Shown piece after piece: positions 3,473 through 40,094 of a DNA stretch of 64,000 nucleotides; position 1 is the first letter of the stretch; each line of letters begins with the position of its first letter. Below the pieces are notes generated by a model. The model was not told the DNA's origin. It searched no databases and worked only from the letters and a program-made list of their open reading frames with translations. The position numbers and the translations under genes are program-made. The DNA is from a virus: positions 15,625-79,624 of the IMG/VR virus record IMGVR_UViG_3300009370_001778; one strand, given 5' to 3'.

Positions 3473-4380
3473 AAGTTTTGTTAACAGGAGCTACAGGCTT
3501 CTTAGGAAAGAATTTAAAAAAGAGGCTATCGCTATCACATGAACTAGTGGGGGTTGGGTCTGAATGGGACTTGAGAAGACAAGAGACATGTGAAAGACTA
3601 ATATCTAAATGTGAACCGGATGCGGTTATACATGCTGCAGGTAGTGTGGGTGGAATAGGAGCAAATCAAGACAATCCCGGAAAGTTTATATACGAAAACC
3701 TCATCATGGGTACAAATGTTATTCACGAATCCATGAGACAAGATATTAAAAAATTTATACTCTTGGGAACGGTGTGTGCATACCCTAAGCATACAGAAGT
3801 GCCCTTTAAAGAAGAGAACATCTGGAATGGTTATCCAGAAGAGACAAATGCTCCATACGGGATTGCCAAAAAAGCACTTATGCAAATGGTGCAATCATAC
3901 CATGAACAGTACGGTCTTAACGGTATCAACCTGATTCCTGTTAACATGTACGGGCCTCACGATCATTTTAACCTAACCAGCAGTCACGTAATACCCGCTT
4001 TAATACTAAAAATTCATAACGCAGTCATCAATAAACAGAATGAGATTGTTATATGGGGCACTGGTAATGCGTCTAGAGAGTTTCTATTCGCTGAAGATTG
4101 TGCAGAGGCTATTTCCCTAGCTCTAGAAAAAAATATTCCTCCCACTCCTATAAACATAGGGACTGGTTCTGAAATAAAAATCATAGATCTTGTTAAAACT
4201 ATAGCTGATATAATTGGCTTTCAGGGTATAATAAGGTGTGATGAAAGCAAGCCTGACGGACAGCCGAGGAGATGTTTGGATACTTCTAAAGCAAAAGAGT
4301 TGCTAGATTTTGAGGCTAGCACAGACTTACGAACTGGTCTTGCGAAAACAATAGATTGGTTTTTAAAAAATAGGGGGTGA
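3469..4380 (+). CDS. fcl: GDP-L-fucose synthase / NDP-4-keto-6-deoxyhexose epimerase-reductase
   Basis: HAAGSVGGIGAN, CAYPK, YGIAK, SHVIPALI, WGTGNASREF, KPDGQPRR. Confidence 0.92.
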   Translation: MKVLLTGATGFLGKNLKKRLSLSHELVGVGSEWDLRRQETCERLISKCEPDAVIHAAGSVGGIGANQDNPGKFIYENLIMGTNVIHESMRQDIKKFILLGTVCAYPKHTEVPFKEENIWNGYPEETNAPYGIAKKALMQMVQSYHEQYGLNGINLIPVNMYGPHDHFNLTSSHVIPALILKIHNAVINKQNEIVIWGTGNASREFLFAEDCAEAISLALEKNIPPTPINIGTGSEIKIIDLVKTIADIIGFQGIIRCDESKPDGQPRRCLDTSKAKELLDFEASTDLRTGLAKTIDWFLKNRG

Positions 4381-4713
4381 CACAGGCATCGACTGATGGT
4401 GAAAATATTAGTTGCATTGACTGGTTGATCGGATGGCCAGTATAAAAGCCGATTACAATTTTAATTGCTGAACCTAGTTTCGCAATCGCAGCCTAGCTGC
4501 TGAGGCTTACCGCGCCTTATCACCCAAGCGGTAACGGGCTAAGTCGTGCTTAGATAGAGGGTTCACTACTTGAGTTAAAAGTGAAATGATGGTATGTCCA
4601 TTTGACTCCGATAAGTCGGATAACTTTGTTCGCTGTGTGAATACAACGTACTAACAATGTAGATGCTACTATGGAAGCTAGACAGGACGCGGGTTCGATT
4701 CCCGCCGCCTCCA
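4373..4713 (+). ncRNA. ssrA: tmRNA (SsrA), tag peptide AEPSFAIAA; CCA not encoded
   Basis: 5' GGGGGTG pairs with 3' CGCCTCC with a G3-U wobble and discriminator A; T-arm GCGGG-TTCGATT-CCCGC at 4689-4705; tag ORF GCT..GCC TAG at 4467-4496. Confidence 0.93.
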
Positions 4714-4727
4714 CTTAAGGGTATAAT

Positions 4728-15375: not shown

Positions 15376-16623
15376 ATGATTGATTTCGTTTTTGACAGAA
15401 GGAACTTATTAAGAATAGGATCTATAGGAGCTGGAATGTCTGCGATGGGACTTTCCGACTATACCTTTGCACAAGATGGAGCTGTTGCATATAAAGATAA
15501 GACAGTGGTCTGGCTATGGCTTGGAGGAGGCCCAACTCAATTTGAGACATTTCACGCCCCATTAGACAATACTCCTTCAGAATGGCAGCCAGTAAATGGA
15601 AGGATATATGATTCAAAAACTAACATCTCTCTTGGAGCTGATTGGCAAGAGCTTTCCAAGCATACGAGCAAACTGAACGTAGTAAATTCCTTCAGTCATA
15701 AAGACTCTTCCCATAGACAGGGGACGCACTTTATGATGACCGGACATTACAATCCAGACAGAACCACTACTTCTATGGCAAAGCATCCTTCTTTTGGGTC
15801 TGTTGTATCCGCTTGTTATGGAACTAATAATCCAGAAAATGGGGTGCCTACCTATGTCAAGCAGGGCAAAATAGAAGGGGATGAAGGCTCTTGGCTTGGA
15901 GGGGCATACAAACCCTTTGACCCATCAAACAAAGACAACCTTACACCCAGAATAGAAATAGATAGATTTACCAATAGAAAGAACCTACTAAACGCTATTG
16001 ATGCAACGAGAGTCTCTGGTAACGGAGCAGCATCCTCAGAGTTTTATAAGAGCCAAGCCTATGATGTAATCCTTGGGTCAGCTAAAGACGCTTTTAATCT
16101 AGATAAAGAAGACGAAAAAACAAAAGCTCTTTACGGATCTGACTCTATAGGAAATCAGCTGCTGCTCGCCAGAAGACTAGCTGAGTATGGGACTCGTTTC
16201 ATAACCCTTACTTATGGCGGATGGGATATGCATAGCAATATCTCTACAGCTATGAAAACTAAGGCTCCTCCAATTGATAAGGCTATAGCTGGATTCCTAC
16301 AAGACGTTTGGGATCGTGGACTAAGTGAAAAAATCATTCTTGTTGTTACTGGTGAGTTTGGAAGAACCAAATTCAACGCAAACTCGGGTAGAGATCACTG
16401 GCCTTCAATTACCCCAATGCTTATGGCTGGTGGAGAATACCAATCCGGTAGAACGATTGGCGCAGCAGACAGATCATATAGCCCAATAGAAAACCCTGTT
16501 GGCCCTCTTGATCTTCAAGCAACCCTGTTCGATCATTTTGGGATAGATAAAAATACACAAAGAGTAGACAATGGTGGACGACCAAGATATTTACTTGAAG
16601 GAGAAGCAAAGGTCATACTATAA
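15376..16623 (+). CDS. DUF1501 family protein, copy 1 (Tat-like RR motif)
   Basis: DRRNLL, WLGGGPTQFETF, LLARRLAEYG, GWDMH, GEFGRT, GRDHW. Confidence 0.92.
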   Translation: MIDFVFDRRNLLRIGSIGAGMSAMGLSDYTFAQDGAVAYKDKTVVWLWLGGGPTQFETFHAPLDNTPSEWQPVNGRIYDSKTNISLGADWQELSKHTSKLNVVNSFSHKDSSHRQGTHFMMTGHYNPDRTTTSMAKHPSFGSVVSACYGTNNPENGVPTYVKQGKIEGDEGSWLGGAYKPFDPSNKDNLTPRIEIDRFTNRKNLLNAIDATRVSGNGAASSEFYKSQAYDVILGSAKDAFNLDKEDEKTKALYGSDSIGNQLLLARRLAEYGTRFITLTYGGWDMHSNISTAMKTKAPPIDKAIAGFLQDVWDRGLSEKIILVVTGEFGRTKFNANSGRDHWPSITPMLMAGGEYQSGRTIGAADRSYSPIENPVGPLDLQATLFDHFGIDKNTQRVDNGGRPRYLLEGEAKVIL

Positions 16624-16778: not shown

Positions 16779-17195
16779 ATGATGCTTGAATATGTTAAAG
16801 AATATTTTAAGCTTAAGGCAAAGGCCAAAAAGGATATGTTCGATAATCCTGAAGAGGCTAAAAAACGAGGAAAAGAACTAGGAGTTGAAGGTGTGCATAC
16901 CCACAAGGATGATACCGGAAAGACTGTATATATGCCCGGGAAAAGCCATGAGGAGTACATGAAGGCTCTCAGGAAAAAAGAGGCCGAAGCTCTACATCCT
17001 GCCTTTAAAAAAATCATCGAGGGCGAGGAGGGGTCACGACCTGATCCTAGCTCAGCTGGTTATAAATATGAGGACCCAAGGACAGGAGAGATTTTTACCT
17101 TTAAAAGAAGAGGGGTCTACAAAAAGAATGGCAGAATTCTTATTTTTGTTTCTAAATCAGATAAGAATAAGGGCAGTTCAAAGGATACAAAATGA
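16779..17195 (+). CDS. Hypothetical phage protein with a GxHxH...YMP..H (DUF3721-like) motif
   Basis: EEAKKRGKELGVEGVHTH...YMPGKSH. Confidence 0.55.
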   Translation: MMLEYVKEYFKLKAKAKKDMFDNPEEAKKRGKELGVEGVHTHKDDTGKTVYMPGKSHEEYMKALRKKEAEALHPAFKKIIEGEEGSRPDPSSAGYKYEDPRTGEIFTFKRRGVYKKNGRILIFVSKSDKNKGSSKDTK

Positions 17196-18496
17196 GTTAT
17201 AAAAAAGATTTAGGTCGCCGCTCGTTTATGCAGGTGGGATTTTTAGGAGGGCTAGGACTTAGTTTATCGGACTATTTAAAAATAAAAGAAGCCCAAGCAG
17301 ATCAGAAGTTCTACGAAAGTAAAGAGGGGCCAGCCAAGTCCGTCATCTACATCTATCTTCCCGGTGGATGTGCTCATCAGGAAACATGGGACCCCAAGCC
17401 ATTTGCCCCTATTGAATATCGTGGCCCAATGGGTAGTATTGAAACCAATATTGTGGGCACTCGACTCAATGAGACTATGGTCAATACTGCAAAGGTAGCG
17501 GACAAGATTGCGATTTGCCGCAGTATGACCCATGGTGAAGCCGCCCACGAACGTGGCACTCACAACATGTTTACTGGGTATCGTCCTAGTCCAGCCCTAC
17601 AATACCCCTCTATAGGTTCTGTAGTTTCTCATGAGTTTGGGCCACGTCAAAATCTCCCTCCTTACGTATGCATTCCAGACCAGCCGAACGAATTTGCTGG
17701 TACGGGATATCTCAGCAGTTCATTCTCAGGATTCAGCTTAGGCTCAGACCCAGCTAGCGATAGTTTCCAAGTTAGAGATCTTAGACTGCCGGGAGGAGTA
17801 GACGATAGCCGCTTCAGTAAACGTCGGAATATGTTAAATACTGTTAATGATTATTTTGCCACCAAAGAAAAGTCCGACTCTCTAGATGCTGTAGATTCTT
17901 TCTATGATAGGGCTTACAGTCTTATAAGTAGCGAAAAAGCACGAAATGCATTTGATATAAACAAAGAAGATGGTGCCGTGCGAGATAAGTATGGTCGCAA
18001 CACGGCAGGCGCTCGCATGTTGCTTGCTCGTCGCCTCATAGAAGCAGGAACTCGTTTTGTATCTCTTACCTACGGTGGCTGGGACATGCATAACAATATT
18101 GAAAATTCAATGAAGGGTCAGCTTCCTGCATTTGATCAAGGGTTTGCTGCACTTATAGAAGACTTAGACCAAAGAGGATTATTAGATTCAACTCTGGTTT
18201 GTGTTGCTTCTGAATTTGGGAGAACCCCAAAGATTAACGCGACAGCAGGAAGAGACCATTGGCCAAAAGTCTTTAGCGTTGTGATGGCTGGAGGAGGAAT
18301 CAAAAAAGGTATTGTGCATGGGTCATCTAACGCAACAGCTAGTGAGCCAGAAGACAGTCCTCTAACAGTCAAAGACTGGGCCACCACCATATATGATAGG
18401 CTAGGTATCGTCTCTGATAAAGAGCTAATGGCTCCCGGAGATCGCCCTATTGAAATTGTTGATGGCGGAAAAACCGTACAAGAATTAATTATTTAA
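17192..18496 (+). CDS. DUF1501 family protein, copy 2 (Tat-like RR motif)
   Basis: GRRSFM, LPGGCAHQETWDPKP, RSMTH..AHERG, GWDMH, EFGRTPKIN, GRDHW. Confidence 0.95.
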   Translation: MSYKKDLGRRSFMQVGFLGGLGLSLSDYLKIKEAQADQKFYESKEGPAKSVIYIYLPGGCAHQETWDPKPFAPIEYRGPMGSIETNIVGTRLNETMVNTAKVADKIAICRSMTHGEAAHERGTHNMFTGYRPSPALQYPSIGSVVSHEFGPRQNLPPYVCIPDQPNEFAGTGYLSSSFSGFSLGSDPASDSFQVRDLRLPGGVDDSRFSKRRNMLNTVNDYFATKEKSDSLDAVDSFYDRAYSLISSEKARNAFDINKEDGAVRDKYGRNTAGARMLLARRLIEAGTRFVSLTYGGWDMHNNIENSMKGQLPAFDQGFAALIEDLDQRGLLDSTLVCVASEFGRTPKINATAGRDHWPKVFSVVMAGGGIKKGIVHGSSNATASEPEDSPLTVKDWATTIYDRLGIVSDKELMAPGDRPIEIVDGGKTVQELII

Positions 18497-18501
18497 CGTG
18501 A

Positions 18502-19041
18502 ATGGAGAAGAAAATGAATAGAAGAAATGTAATATCTATTGTTGCTGCAACACTCATGCTGCCAATGGGTCTAATCGCTGCACCTTCAAATGGTAGACCT
18601 TCAAGACCATCTTGCAAAGACTGCAAGAAATGCGGTCGCGCATGTAAATGTGAATGCAGTAAAGGCTGCAAGTGTAAGCCCGGATGCTGTAAACAGGGAG
18701 AGTCCAAGCCTAAAGCTCCTCAGAAACCTCGTGGTTTTGATGGAAGAGCCCCTAGCTTCCGACCTCCTAATAGCAGACCTCCGAGCGGTTTTGATAGAAG
18801 AACTCCCGGTTTTGGACCTCCATCACATGGTAGACCTCCACAAGGAAGACCTTATCATAACAAAGAAAGTCGCTTTGAGAAAGATGAAGCTCGTCACCTG
18901 CCCTCATCAAAACATAACCCTACTAATTATGAAATCATGATGCGTAGGTTTGATAAAAATAAAGACGGTAAAATTCAAGCAGAAGAGAAAAAAGCTGCTC
19001 AGAACTGGTTTCGAGAAAGAGCTTCCCTATGGCAAAAATAA
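18502..19041 (+). CDS. Secreted-type protein: Tat-like signal, Cys-rich cluster, Pro/Arg/Gly linker, EF-hand
   Basis: NRRNVI + hydrophobic core; CKDCKKCGRACKCECSKGCKCKPGCC; DKNKDGKIQAEE. Confidence 0.7.
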   Translation: MEKKMNRRNVISIVAATLMLPMGLIAAPSNGRPSRPSCKDCKKCGRACKCECSKGCKCKPGCCKQGESKPKAPQKPRGFDGRAPSFRPPNSRPPSGFDRRTPGFGPPSHGRPPQGRPYHNKESRFEKDEARHLPSSKHNPTNYEIMMRRFDKNKDGKIQAEEKKAAQNWFRERASLWQK

Positions 19042-19313
19042 ATGATTGGGTTCAAAGAACGAAGTTTCCACTTCCGGGGAAAGAACCGTTTGACTGACAC
19101 GAGTATTCTATCGCACAGGTTGTGCGTATTGATGAAGAGAGCGTAGAGGTAGATTTTGCGTGTAGCTGCATGACATTTGATGGAAGCAGCCGCAAGCTTT
19201 GGCATCATGGAGAGTATCTTCCTGTTGATGAAAAATCTTACGCAAAACATAAAGAGGCACATGATGCCTGTTGTTTATTTAATGAAGAATTAGAGGTAGA
19301 TTATGCAGCGTAG
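19029..19313 (+). CDS. 94-aa Cys-rich protein with an in-frame UGA at codon 23 (19095-97); candidate selenoprotein
   Basis: ATG 19029 overlaps the upstream gene and is in frame with the 19122 ORF; SECIS-like hairpin follows the UGA. Confidence 0.55.
19109..19128 (+). promoter_or_regulatory. Putative bacterial SECIS element
   Basis: UA-[U bulge]-CGCACA-GGU-UGUGCG-UA, starting 11 nt after the UGA. Confidence 0.55.
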
Positions 19314-20523
19314 AAATTTCTTAAAACACCTATCATTATTCCCTGCCATACCTTTAGTAGAATCTCTTAGAGCCAATCAGGAAGAGTTAAAGAAAAATGG
19401 AAAATCTGCTATCCTACTATGGATGGGAGGCGGCCCATCTACTATGGATATTTGGGATCTAAAGCCAGAGGCATCAACGGGAGGTCCGTTTAGACCAATA
19501 GGCACCTCGGGAGATGTCCAGATTTGCGAGCACATGCCATTGATGGCAAAGCAGATGCACAATATGGCCATTGTTAGGTCAATGAGTACTCGCGAGGCAG
19601 ACCATATGCGTGGACGATATTATATGCATACGGGCTATGTCCCTAATCCATCTATTGAGCACCCTAGCTATGGGTCTTTGCTGTCTCATCAGTTGCGACG
19701 AGACGACATTGAAATACCTCAGTTCGTTACTGTTGGAGGGGGTAGTATGGGAGCAGGTTTTCTTGGAGCTCAGTACAATCCCTTTTCTGTCAACAGTGAT
19801 GGTAGAATAAGAAATCTAGATATGAAGGTAGACGCAAGACTCATTCAAAGAGCTTATGCTCTTGACCTCATAGAAAGTAATTTCATCAACCAGAAAAGAG
19901 GCTCTCTTGCCAAGGATCACCAATCGGTATTAAAGCAAACGTTCAATCTTCTCACAAGTGAACAGATGGAGGCCTTTAAGATTGCAGGAGAACCTGAACC
20001 TGTTAAAGAAAGATATGGAGACAATGGGTTTGGTAAAGGATGTTTAATGGCAAGAAGACTTGTCGAAGTTGGAGTTCCCTTTATTGAAGTTAATTTAGGA
20101 GGGTGGGACAATCATCAGAATATTTTCCCAACACTAAAAGATAATAAACTACCTGTGCTTGACCAAGGAATGAGCGCACTAGTTGAAGATCTAGAGCAAC
20201 GAGAACTACTCAAGGATACAGCTATCATCTGGATGGGTGAATTTAGCCGCACTCCTCGCATCAATGGAAACGCTGGGCGTGATCACTGGGCTCGTAGTTG
20301 GAGCGTTGTAGTTGGTGGAGCAGGCATGAATGGTGGTATTGCGGTAGGGGAAACTAGTGATGATGGCACTAAGGTTATAACAGACCCTTATTCATCTCAG
20401 GATATTATGGCTTCTGTCTGCAAGGCATTAGGCATTTCTTTGAGCACGACCTTTACTAGTAACAGTGGACGGCCCATGAAGATTGCCAATTCTGGAAAAA
20501 TAATCAAGGAACTGTTTGCATAA
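19303..20523 (+). CDS. DUF1501 family protein, copy 3 (Tat-like RR motif)
   Basis: QRRNFL, WMGGGPSTMDIWDLKP, RSMST, GWDNH, GEFSRTPRIN, GRDHW. Confidence 0.95.
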   Translation: MQRRNFLKHLSLFPAIPLVESLRANQEELKKNGKSAILLWMGGGPSTMDIWDLKPEASTGGPFRPIGTSGDVQICEHMPLMAKQMHNMAIVRSMSTREADHMRGRYYMHTGYVPNPSIEHPSYGSLLSHQLRRDDIEIPQFVTVGGGSMGAGFLGAQYNPFSVNSDGRIRNLDMKVDARLIQRAYALDLIESNFINQKRGSLAKDHQSVLKQTFNLLTSEQMEAFKIAGEPEPVKERYGDNGFGKGCLMARRLVEVGVPFIEVNLGGWDNHQNIFPTLKDNKLPVLDQGMSALVEDLEQRELLKDTAIIWMGEFSRTPRINGNAGRDHWARSWSVVVGGAGMNGGIAVGETSDDGTKVITDPYSSQDIMASVCKALGISLSTTFTSNSGRPMKIANSGKIIKELFA

Positions 20524-37605: not shown

Positions 37606-37800
37606 ATGAACGAACAAAGCTTTGAAGTTAGGTTTGAACCATCAATTGGAGAACACTGTTATGTCTACCAAAGAAATGATGGTTCTAGCTTTGGGTCTAT
37701 AGTAAAACCCCATGAGTGGGGGGAAAATTACCAATACAAGTTTTTATATAAAGCGACATATACCTCAGAAGGAAAGTGGAAAAAGAACAATGAACAATAG
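37606..37800 (+). CDS. Small protein, DUF2452-like
   Basis: FEPSIG..YVY.R.DG..F.S...P.EWG. Confidence 0.5.
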   Translation: MNEQSFEVRFEPSIGEHCYVYQRNDGSSFGSIVKPHEWGENYQYKFLYKATYTSEGKWKKNNEQ

Positions 37801-38470
37801 ATGGATAATTGTATTCGACTGGGAAACTGATAGCCCAAACCCAAACACATGCAACCCTGTTGAGCTTGCTGCCGTACCAGTGAATCCTCGCACGTTAGAA
37901 ATAAAAACAGATCAAGCATTTCGGGCAACTATTCGTCCAGACGATATTGATTCCGAAGAATATTTTACCAAAGAAAGACAAGGAACTATAGCTTGGCACG
38001 CGAAGCAGCGTGGAGTAGAAACAGAAGAGATTATAGCAGACTGGAAACAAGGTCAAAGTGAAAAAGTTGTCTGGAAAAACTTTTGCAACTACTGCGCTAA
38101 GTACGAAGTAGACAAAAAGCCGGGACAATGGTATACAGAACCCATCCCTTCAGGATATAATATTATTGGATTTGATCTTGTCATTGCCAATAGGATGGTT
38201 GAAAAACACAAAACAAAGTCTCCTTTCTCAAAGGTAACTAAGATTGACATGATGGACATCCTGTTTATGTGGTTCGAAAATTTAGATGAGCCTAGCAGTA
38301 TGAAGCTTGATGCTTTCCGAGACTTCTTCGGAATGGAAGCAGCACAAGCACATGAGGCACTATCAGATACTATTGACGAGGCTGAGCTGTTAGTGAAGTT
38401 CATGAAGTTTCATCGAAGACAATCGACAGTTGGAAAATTTAAGGATTCATTTGCTAATGCTAAAGTTTAA
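37790..38470 (+). CDS. DEDDh 3'-5' exonuclease (DnaQ/epsilon-like)
   Basis: VFDWETD, GYNIIGFD, AHEALSD. Confidence 0.88.
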   Translation: MNNRWIIVFDWETDSPNPNTCNPVELAAVPVNPRTLEIKTDQAFRATIRPDDIDSEEYFTKERQGTIAWHAKQRGVETEEIIADWKQGQSEKVVWKNFCNYCAKYEVDKKPGQWYTEPIPSGYNIIGFDLVIANRMVEKHKTKSPFSKVTKIDMMDILFMWFENLDEPSSMKLDAFRDFFGMEAAQAHEALSDTIDEAELLVKFMKFHRRQSTVGKFKDSFANAKV

Positions 38471-40094
38471 GTGTGGATGTGAATTTCACCAAGACGAAAA
38501 TGGAAAGACCATATTCGATCCTGATATCAGCAAACTAAACATGGACTGTGTTGCCACTTGGGATATGATCTGCGATGGAAACACCAAGGGGGTATTTCAG
38601 TTAGAGTCTCAACTAGGACGGTCTCTGTCCTCTCAAACAAAGCCTAGAGACATAGCAGAACTATCAGACTTGATCGCAATTATGCGGCCCGGATGTCTAG
38701 AGGCTATAGTTAATGGTAAAACTCTGACTATGCATTACATTGATAGAAAACACAAAAGAGACGCTGTAGAATATTTTCATGACTCCTTAGAGAGCATACT
38801 GGGCAGCACGTATGGTATTTTAGTGTACCAAGAACAGGCAATTCTAATTGCTACAGAAATAGCCGGATTTGATTTGCAAGAAGCTGACATTCTCAGAAAG
38901 GCTATCGGTAAGAAAAAGGCAGATGTAATGGCTGAGGTTAAAAAGTCTTTTATTGAAAAGGCTATAAAAAAAGAGATTGTTAATAGAGAACAGGCTGAAG
39001 AAATTTTTAGCTGGATCGAGAAATCTCAAAGATATTCTTTTAATAAATCTCACTCAGTAAGCTACGCCTACAATGCTTACCTAACAGCATACGCAAAAGC
39101 ACATTTTCCACATGAATTTTTTACCTCATATCTAAGAAATGCCGTTGGTAAACCAGACACCTTCATGGAAGTACAAGAGCTTGTCAATAACGCTAAAATA
39201 ATGGGAATCAATGTAATGCCTCCAAGTGTTACAAAAATGAATGAAGAATTTAAGCTAATGGGGGATAACCCTACTTATGGAATGACCAATGTAAAAGGGG
39301 TAGGCTCGTCTGTATTTGCAAAGATGAGTGCAGACATGGAGGAAAGAGGCATTGACCCAGAGAATTGCGATTGGGACTGCTTTCTGCTTTTAGTGTCTCC
39401 CCACGTTAACAAAAAGGCATTTTTAAACTTGATACTAGCTGGGTGCTTTGATTCTTTTAAAATATCTAGAAGTAAGATGCAGCACCAGTACAGCATTGTA
39501 AAAGAACTTTCGAAGAGAGAAATTACTTGGCTGTCGGAATACAAGACAGACAATCCTGAAGAGAAGGTTAAAGAATGTCTATTAAAAATGATAAGTGTAT
39601 CGGATTCCAAGGATAAAAAAAGACCAATTTTCAGAAAGGCTAGAATTCCAGTGGTTGTAGACCTAGTGGATGCTTATGAAAATCCGGGATATGACCTATA
39701 CGATTCTCCGTCTTGGCTCGCAAAACAAGAGGAGGAGCTTCTGGGAACAGCATTAACTTGCAGTAAAGTAGATGAGTATGACACAAGCAGGTCCAACTGT
39801 ACATGCAAAGAATTTTTAGACGGATTCCAAGGTCAGCAGGGTATATATTTAGCGGTACAAGTCAACGCTGTCCGGGAATGGGAGATTAAAAAAGGACGTT
39901 CAAAAGGTCAAAAGATGGGCTTTTTAACAGTGAGTGACACTAGCTGTTCTATAGATAATGTAACAGCTTTTTCTGAAGAATGGGATAAGTATAAAAAATT
40001 ACTCCATGAAGGCAATACGGTACTACTTAGAGGTATCAAAGACAAGAATAGAGGAAGTTTTTTGATTAAAAAGGTAGAACAATTAACAAGTTAG
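38457..40094 (+). CDS. dnaE: DNA polymerase III alpha, C-terminal part (fingers, HhH, OB)
   Basis: GVFQLES, RPG, TYGILVYQEQ, LRKAIGKK, YSFNKSHS, VKGVG, MGFLTVSD. Confidence 0.93.
   Translation: MLKFKCGCEFHQDENGKTIFDPDISKLNMDCVATWDMICDGNTKGVFQLESQLGRSLSSQTKPRDIAELSDLIAIMRPGCLEAIVNGKTLTMHYIDRKHKRDAVEYFHDSLESILGSTYGILVYQEQAILIATEIAGFDLQEADILRKAIGKKKADVMAEVKKSFIEKAIKKEIVNREQAEEIFSWIEKSQRYSFNKSHSVSYAYNAYLTAYAKAHFPHEFFTSYLRNAVGKPDTFMEVQELVNNAKIMGINVMPPSVTKMNEEFKLMGDNPTYGMTNVKGVGSSVFAKMSADMEERGIDPENCDWDCFLLLVSPHVNKKAFLNLILAGCFDSFKISRSKMQHQYSIVKELSKREITWLSEYKTDNPEEKVKECLLKMISVSDSKDKKRPIFRKARIPVVVDLVDAYENPGYDLYDSPSWLAKQEEELLGTALTCSKVDEYDTSRSNCTCKEFLDGFQGQQGIYLAVQVNAVREWEIKKGRSKGQKMGFLTVSDTSCSIDNVTAFSEEWDKYKKLLHEGNTVLLRGIKDKNRGSFLIKKVEQLTS

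Follow-up and report, generated by a model that had tools for sequence, protein, structure and literature searches.

The DNA analyzed here (hereafter the window) is a stretch of 64,000 nucleotides (nt) from the IMG/VR virus record IMGVR_UViG_3300009370_001778 (positions 15,625 to 79,624), a contig of 79.6 kilobases (kb) that is estimated to be ~52% complete. The subject of this analysis is a small gene of the window that begins with ATG 19029, shares 13 nt with the gene upstream of it (18502-19041) and 11 nt with the DUF1501 gene downstream (19303-20523), and contains an in-frame TGA at codon 23, after which 71 further codons follow up to the TAG at 19311-19313. A first-pass annotation had proposed that the UGA is read as selenocysteine (Sec) under the direction of a hairpin that resembles the selenocysteine insertion sequence (SECIS) of Escherichia coli fdhF, and its description of the start codon, the 94-residue frame with UGA, the overlaps with both neighbors and the hairpin is correct. 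The best explanation for the arrangement is that the gene specifies one 94-residue cytoplasmic protein, and we estimate a probability of roughly 85% that codon 23 is read as Sec by the machinery of the bacterial host. The features on which the analysis is centered are the following:

19029..19313, + strand: the putative Sec gene, 94 codons plus the TAG stop at 19311-19313; same architecture in 71 related loci
19029..19094, + strand: codons 1-22 (MAKINDWVQRTKFPLPGKEPFD), first strand and loop of a predicted barrel
19095..19097, + strand: in-frame UGA, codon 23, proposed to be read as selenocysteine; TGA in 71/71 loci
19098..19108, + strand: spacer of 11 nt from the UGA to the hairpin base (CACGAGTATTC); length constant in 34 variants
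19109..19128, + strand: SECIS-like hairpin UA-U-CGCACA-GGU-UGUGCG-UA; covariation, and an apex equal to that of the putative planctomycete selD SECIS
19112-19117 / 19121-19126, + strand: upper stem of the hairpin, with the loop GGU at 19118-19120
19161..19169, + strand: C45-x-C47 motif, invariant in 19 sequences including distant homologues
19260..19274, + strand: H78-x3-C82 at the end of a predicted C-terminal helix, invariant in the same 19 sequences

Relatives of this locus were sought in IMG/VR and in metagenome contigs from JGI, Tara and ENA, and the 18 + 51 loci that were found, taken together with a distant locus (L070) and the window, make up a set of 71 sequences in which the protein identity is 48-87%. 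Members of the family are found widely among phage contigs of marine and deep-sea origin. Codon 23 is TGA in every one of the 71 sequences (the window included), and neither TGY (Cys) nor TGG (Trp) occurs at this position in any of them. Contigs from two separate studies differ from the window at nearby positions but not at 19095-19097. In the phage itself TGA is a normal terminator, which ends 33 of 96 long open reading frames (ORFs).

The sequences on the two sides of the UGA vary in much the same manner. Calculated over 43 distinct gene sequences, the entropies at the first, second and third codon positions are 0.48, 0.29 and 1.18 in codons 1-22, while in codons 34-86 they are 0.54, 0.45 and 1.17. 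Because the variation is biased to third positions, the part upstream of the UGA evolves as coding sequence in frame. An AAGGAG ribosome-binding site lies 7-10 nt 5' of the upstream ATG in nearly all relatives. The 22-residue upstream part, on whose conservation the earlier proposal depended, is conserved and varies like coding sequence. A deep-sea clade (L011-L017) lacks ATG, GTG and TTG in this frame from the TGA up to codon 48; in these phages the invariant residues within the segment 24-47 (C45 and C47 among them) are reachable only by passage through the UGA.

The hairpin that follows the UGA was predicted with ViennaRNA to have a stem of 6 base pairs (bp) with a GGU loop, starting 14 nt past the UGA (11 nt if weak lower pairs are counted). 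In 33 distinct variants the length of the spacer is constant, the GGU loop is invariant and ~98% of the upper-stem cells are paired (92.8% for all pairs together); neither the paired fraction nor the covariation score was matched by any of 500 shuffles, and both collapse in shifted registers. Compensatory changes occur at two pairs of the upper stem, numbered by alignment column: pair 18-32 is C-G in 19 variants, U-A in 13 and unpaired in 1, and pair 21-29 is A-U in 26, G-C in 4 and G-U in 3. The changes in the 5' arm are synonymous (Ile28 from ATC to ATT, Ala29 from GCA to GCG), whereas the matching changes in the 3' arm replace Val32 by Ala and Arg33 by His or Gln, so that at these positions RNA pairing dictates the amino-acid replacements. 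On this pattern of substitutions, the hairpin is evidently under selection as RNA. The lower pair 16-33 is more variable (A-U in 15 variants, G-C in 5, unpaired in 13).

In the search program bSECISearch, 16-37 nt are allowed between the UGA and the loop. The GGU loop of the phage hairpin begins 20 nt past the UGA, and the stem-loop has the GU in its apical loop that is looked for in bacterial SECIS elements. When both strands of the whole 79.6-kb record were scanned for in-frame TGA codons that have open frame to either side and, at a distance of 8-32 nt downstream, a hairpin with a GGU loop and a stem of no fewer than 5 bp, the TGA at codon 23 was the only one of its kind. A sensitive Rfam scan of positions 19000-19250 detected no SECIS family.

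A different line of evidence is provided by the bacteria in which these phages probably propagate. The DUF1501 gene at 17192-18496, which looks like a recently captured auxiliary gene and serves as a marker of the host, encodes a protein with 84-87% identity to the products of chromosomal genes in metagenome-assembled genomes of marine Planctomycetaceae and Pirellulaceae, and two of these homologues reside in a syntenic cellular context, one of them on a 327-kb contig. From these matches we infer that planctomycetes are probably the hosts. The closest DUF1501 homologues come from five Planctomycetota genomes (G003-G007; 26.7 megabases (Mb) in total), all of which encode SelA, SelB and a tRNA-Sec that scores above the Rfam threshold (64-67 bits). 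The gene for selenophosphate synthetase, selD, was detected in three of these genomes (where assembled), with a single in-frame TGA in the selD genes of G003 and G005. The host genes that the earlier proposal presupposed (selA, selB, selC and selD) are therefore present in the likely host clade.

The selD genes of G003 and G005 carry, 3' of their TGA, the sequence TGCACA-GGT-TGTGCA. At every base this sequence matches the hairpin of phage variants such as L045, L048, L053 and L070, and it encodes the same A-Q-V-V as the phage hairpin. The window's own version, CCGCACA-GGT-TGTGCGG, occurs in the selD genes of two other genomes (G014 and G020). In a sample of 81 Planctomycetia genomes, a hairpin with the apex CAGGUU was found at a constant place in 15 of 15 selD genes of the TGA type and in none of the 17 of the Cys type, and because of this distribution the hairpin can be tied to Sec decoding in the Planctomycetia. 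The 13-nt core GCRCAGGTTGYGC occurs six times in the 26.7 Mb of the five host-like genomes; two of these occurrences are in selD and the other four have no in-frame TGA upstream. The odds of a chance match to this core within a gene of 285 nt are on the order of 1 in 50,000. Going beyond what the first-pass annotation had envisioned, the hairpin is identical in sequence to the apex of what would be the SECIS of Sec-type planctomycete selD, and by virtue of this identity the phage element is probably of the kind that is recognized by the SelB protein of the host.

The same survey showed that, among the selD genes sampled from the Planctomycetia, about half encode selenoproteins, and that the hairpins of the UGA type exist in two registers, GCACA-GGU-UGUGC and GCGCAG-GUU-CUGCGC. 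In a glutathione peroxidase gene of another planctomycete genome (L227, G008:C174:14200-15100), an in-frame TGA occupies the position of the active site (VNVASA-U-GLT), and 17 nt farther on there is a hairpin of the form CCUGC-AGUU-GCAGG. In the other sampled Planctomycetia no glutathione peroxidase gene had an internal stop, and the glutathione peroxidases of all but this one genome are of the Cys type. The occurrence of the Sec trait in some planctomycetes has been published (PMC4807772).

Distant homologues of the phage protein were sought by a profile search of 1.84 billion representative proteins, which yielded a few small and unnamed ones. In one of these (P0021) Cys occupies precisely the column of the UGA (80 columns aligned, with an hhalign probability of 97.4% and E 1e-11), where PFS-C-KAH-SFGRV of the homologue is aligned with PFD-U-HEY-SIAQV of the phage protein. 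A Cys opposite the UGA is the usual Sec/Cys signature, as judged here from one sequence. Viral-contig scans in which P0021, P0014 and P0019 served as queries gave no match. When the alignment of the family was used to scan 185,579 prokaryote genomes, no cellular homologue emerged, although the scan was limited by the search pattern and does not prove absence. No match for the gene product was detected in Pfam or PHROG at E <= 0.01, and in the ESM Atlas a 71-residue part matched weak unnamed clusters only. Another candidate, P0016 (2220 residues with five "stretches"), was set aside as a spurious match to a repeat protein.

The existing database entries for this gene family are affected by a systematic annotation error, in that gene callers either shorten the gene to 63 residues or, on short contigs, translate the UGA as Trp under genetic code table 4. 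The first protein searches accordingly returned 63-residue forms starting with RIDEE and, in P0002, a single form of 98 residues in which codon 23 is given as Trp. The Trp of P0002 can be attributed to a table-4 gene call on a short contig rather than to TGG, since P0002 also has Trp opposite the terminal TGA of L007, a nearly identical locus. The Trp residues at codon 23 of P0009 and P0010 were likewise discounted as table-4 calls of TGA by comparison with L055 and L070, respectively. Wherever the DNA of a homologue could be read, codon 23 was free of Trp or any other sense codon.

Taken together, the conserved UGA, the covarying hairpin, the identity with selD of the host clade and the Cys homologue support the earlier proposal of Sec decoding with host SelB. 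By this mechanism, UGA codon 23 would be decoded as selenocysteine by host SelB with Sec-tRNA-Sec, and the signal would be the in-frame hairpin with its 6-bp upper stem and GGU apex, which has the same sequence as the presumed SelB-binding hairpin of selD mRNA. A number of points weigh against this reading. The insertion of Sec is itself deduced from sequence, and planctomycetes are assigned as hosts solely because an auxiliary gene is similar to theirs. In selD the stem begins 26 nt past the UGA, and in the phage it begins 14 nt past it, i.e., 12 nt closer; this difference is partly answered by the G008 glutathione peroxidase gene, which, as one example, indicates that spacing varies among selenoprotein genes of the Planctomycetia. 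The hairpin taken alone is no more stable than shuffled sequence (z = 0.3), and the bulged U17 of the fdhF type, which is present in the window, is only partly conserved, since the lower pair 16-33 that creates the bulge holds in 20 of the 33 variants and is unformed in 13. The Cys homologue P0021 is a single protein sequence from a 1-kb contig, and two other homologues (P0014 and P0019) have W at the UGA column, as known at the level of protein from contigs of 550-570 nt; by analogy, these W residues may also be table-4 gene calls. No tRNA-Sec, SelA, SelB or SelD was found in three phage records that are each 45-52% complete, so that absence from the phages is not shown (sub-threshold matches of the tRNA-Sec model in these records are ordinary tRNAs). 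Because no tRNA-Sec or sel gene was seen in these fragments of about half a genome, Sec decoding would have to depend wholly on the host.

The UGA might alternatively be a programmed leaky stop that is read by a standard near-cognate tRNA (for Trp, or for Cys or Arg), as in the A1 protein of phage Q-beta, in which case the hairpin would merely slow the ribosomes or promote read-through and the products would be a selenium-free protein of 94 residues and a peptide of 22 residues. UGA-C is a leaky context in bacteria, and 33 of 34 variants have it; L070, however, has UGA-U. The W residues of P0014 and P0019 would suit such read-through, but each W that could be checked in DNA is a table-4 gene call, and the only homologue that has a sense codon at this position (P0021) has Cys. 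Moreover, TGA has been kept in 71 of 71 sequences and never replaced by TGG, although one mutation would fix Trp, and a hairpin that is the exact mark of Sec-type selD only would be unexpected for a generic stimulator. We regard read-through by a standard tRNA as unlikely.

It is more doubtful that the locus encodes two products, i.e., a 22-residue leader peptide that ends at the UGA and a 63-residue protein that starts from GTG 19122, with the hairpin coupling or gating re-initiation. The 63-residue form is the one annotated in most databases and GTG 19122 does lie within the 3' arm of the hairpin, but no Shine-Dalgarno sequence precedes this GTG, residues 24-32 are conserved as protein, and in the L011 clade no canonical start follows the TGA before codon 48. 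The N-terminal part is kept in frame in distant homologues as well, and residues 1-22 are predicted to form an integral strand of a single domain (see below), which would be difficult to reconcile with a separate leader. Very improbable, in our estimation, is a pseudogene, an assembly error or a genetic code with TGA as a sense codon, each of which a lone in-frame stop in a small unannotated gene resembles at first sight. The 71 assemblies that retain the TGA are independent and come from many studies, and selection is purifying to either side of it. A TGA-reassigned code (table 4 or 25) is ruled out by the use of TGA as the terminator of about a third of the long ORFs, as counted above, and by the presence of but one such internal TGA in 79.6 kb.

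If codon 23 is read as Sec, the product would belong to a type of protein for which the sequence and the predicted structure offer some clues. With 19 sequences as input, AlphaFold2 modeled the 94-residue read-through product as a single compact domain (predicted local distance difference test (pLDDT) 93.5; predicted template modeling score (pTM) 0.83) with five strands, of which the first is residues 7-10, and a C-terminal helix (68-81). The model suggests an SH3/Tudor-like beta-barrel packed by the C-terminal helix, and in structure searches residues 1-66 were aligned with SH3/Tudor/KOW-like barrels, with residues 1-22 lying within the aligned barrel. These matches are generic (VIA-align Z 5.2-6.6, root-mean-square deviation ~2 Å over 54-61 residues; Foldseek E >= 0.02), and with Z scores in the range of common arrangements the predicted fold yields no functional lead. 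The residues that are invariant over the 19 aligned sequences are U/C23, C45, C47, M48, W58, E62, H78 and C82. Because five potential ligands (Sec/Cys, CxC and Hx3C) are invariant in a small barrel, Sec23, Cys45, Cys47, His78 and Cys82 probably form a metal-binding or redox centre. The first-pass annotation had likewise pictured a metal-binding or redox protein with Sec, Cys and His; the role in metal binding or redox chemistry keeps the status of a suggestion from conserved residues.

The genetic background in which this gene is found might also be informative. The window encodes a class I ribonucleotide reductase, a DnaB helicase, a primase, a UvsX-like recombinase, a DNA polymerase of the family A type (in two ORFs) and PhoH, and the Sec gene always belongs to an island of auxiliary genes that has the ribonucleotide reductase genes on one side and phoH on the other. 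The composition of the island differs between clades, as follows:

Window's clade: Sec gene between DUF1501 genes, after a gene for an exported Cys-rich EF-hand protein
Deep-sea clade (L014, L018): Sec gene directly after a gene for an IscA/HesB-type iron-sulfur (Fe-S) carrier, and after DUF1501
L070: no DUF1501 among the four neighboring ORFs scanned; RuvB upstream

In the window, three DUF1501 genes flank the Sec gene (15376-16623, 17192-18496 and 19303-20523, all on the + strand). Its immediate upstream neighbor (18502-19041, +) specifies a signal-like N-terminus, a metallothionein-like stretch rich in Cys and Lys (CKDCKKCGRACKCECSKGCKCKPGCC), a part rich in Pro and Arg, and a weak EF-hand match. 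The IscA/HesB-type genes (PF01521) of the deep-sea clade are located at L014:3658-3981 and L018:3528-3950, and a gene resembling that for glyceraldehyde-3-phosphate dehydrogenase as well as phoH lie downstream of the Sec gene there. A role of the Sec gene product in Fe-S or metal handling is a reasonable guess, but no more than that.

Two further observations on the window concern genes at a distance from this island. A transfer-messenger RNA (tmRNA) was identified at 4373-4716 (+; Rfam RF00023, 94.5 bits), for which ARAGORN predicts the tag peptide AEPSFAIAA. The DNA polymerase (phrog_405) is represented by two ORFs, 35742-37601 and 38430-40094 (+), that match the N- and C-terminal halves of the protein and between which lies an ORF of 252 residues (37712-38470); the arrangement may reflect a split gene or an inserted element.

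Decoding of Sec is known from cells and from a few poxviruses, and full-text searching of the literature turned up no paper in which a bacterial virus is said to encode a selenoprotein. In a review of viral recoding, the glutathione peroxidases of poxviruses are the only viral selenoproteins named (PMC8310308), and in a survey of ocean metagenomes (PMC9402790) viral members of selenoprotein families were few or absent. If Sec is used by the phages described here, they would exploit a rare translation pathway of their hosts, and selenium may limit some phage infections. A SECIS that matches that of the host could help to predict the hosts of uncultured phages, and the combination of a 94-residue protein and a 20-nt hairpin would be a compact test case for the specificity of planctomycete SelB. 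One can also speculate, with little confidence, that the phages, beyond having evolved a SECIS, carry a copy of the SelB-binding hairpin of host selD mRNA, so that in the course of infection the phage transcript competes for SelB with that of selD, whose product makes the selenium donor, thereby tying synthesis of the phage protein to the selenium supply of the host and perhaps disturbing that supply, while the protein with its Sec, three Cys and His works together with the products of the IscA-like and DUF1501 genes and acts as a metal or redox cofactor protein that depends on selenium and is unique to viruses.

Comparisons with known systems place the phage gene among bacterial selenoprotein genes in some respects and apart from them in others. 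The E. coli fdhF element (from NC_000913) reads TGA CACGGCCCATC GG-T-TGCA-GGTC-TGCA-CC, and the phage gene has in common with it (Sec140 of fdhF) the UGA-CAC, the 11-nt spacer, a U17 beside a 2-bp lower stem and a loop that starts with GGU. As in genes of the fdhF type generally, the hairpin is inside the coding sequence right after the UGA and a Cys homologue exists. The upper stem has 6 bp in the phage and 4 bp in fdhF, and the loop is GGU (or AGGUU) as opposed to GGUC. The likeness to fdhF that was drawn in the first-pass annotation, down to an upper stem longer by 2 bp, therefore holds for the window, and it holds only partially for the U17 bulge when the relatives of the window are considered. 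Unlike fdhF, the phage gene is borne by a virus, and it encodes a protein that falls outside all known selenoprotein families, as judged from the Pfam and PHROG searches. The predicted protein is comparable to PsaE, NdhS and the N-terminal domain of Hpy99I (SH3/Tudor/KOW/PWWP-like barrels) in its five-stranded barrel and C-terminal helix, but it has no sequence relation to these proteins, and only the phage protein has the U/C...CxC...Hx3C set.

The closest resemblance is to the putative SECIS of Planctomycetia selD, with which the phage hairpin shares the apex (U/C)GCACA-GGU-UGUGC(A/G) and the encoded peptide [IV]AQVV, whereas many selD genes of these bacteria have the hairpin in the shifted register and the remainder of the phage protein shows no evident similarity to SelD. 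The glutathione peroxidases of molluscum contagiosum virus and fowlpox virus (PMC8310308) are, like the product proposed here, encoded by a viral gene with a UGA for Sec and need the Sec machinery of the host. They are, however, captured cellular enzymes of a known family that belong to viruses of eukaryotes and use a eukaryotic SECIS, whereas the gene described here resides in a bacterial virus, has a SECIS of the bacterial type and belongs to a family for which the prokaryote scan found no cellular homologue. The mechanism would be the known bacterial one, and what would be new is its carriage by a phage, a protein family without known relatives, and a SECIS that matches the selD of the likely host.

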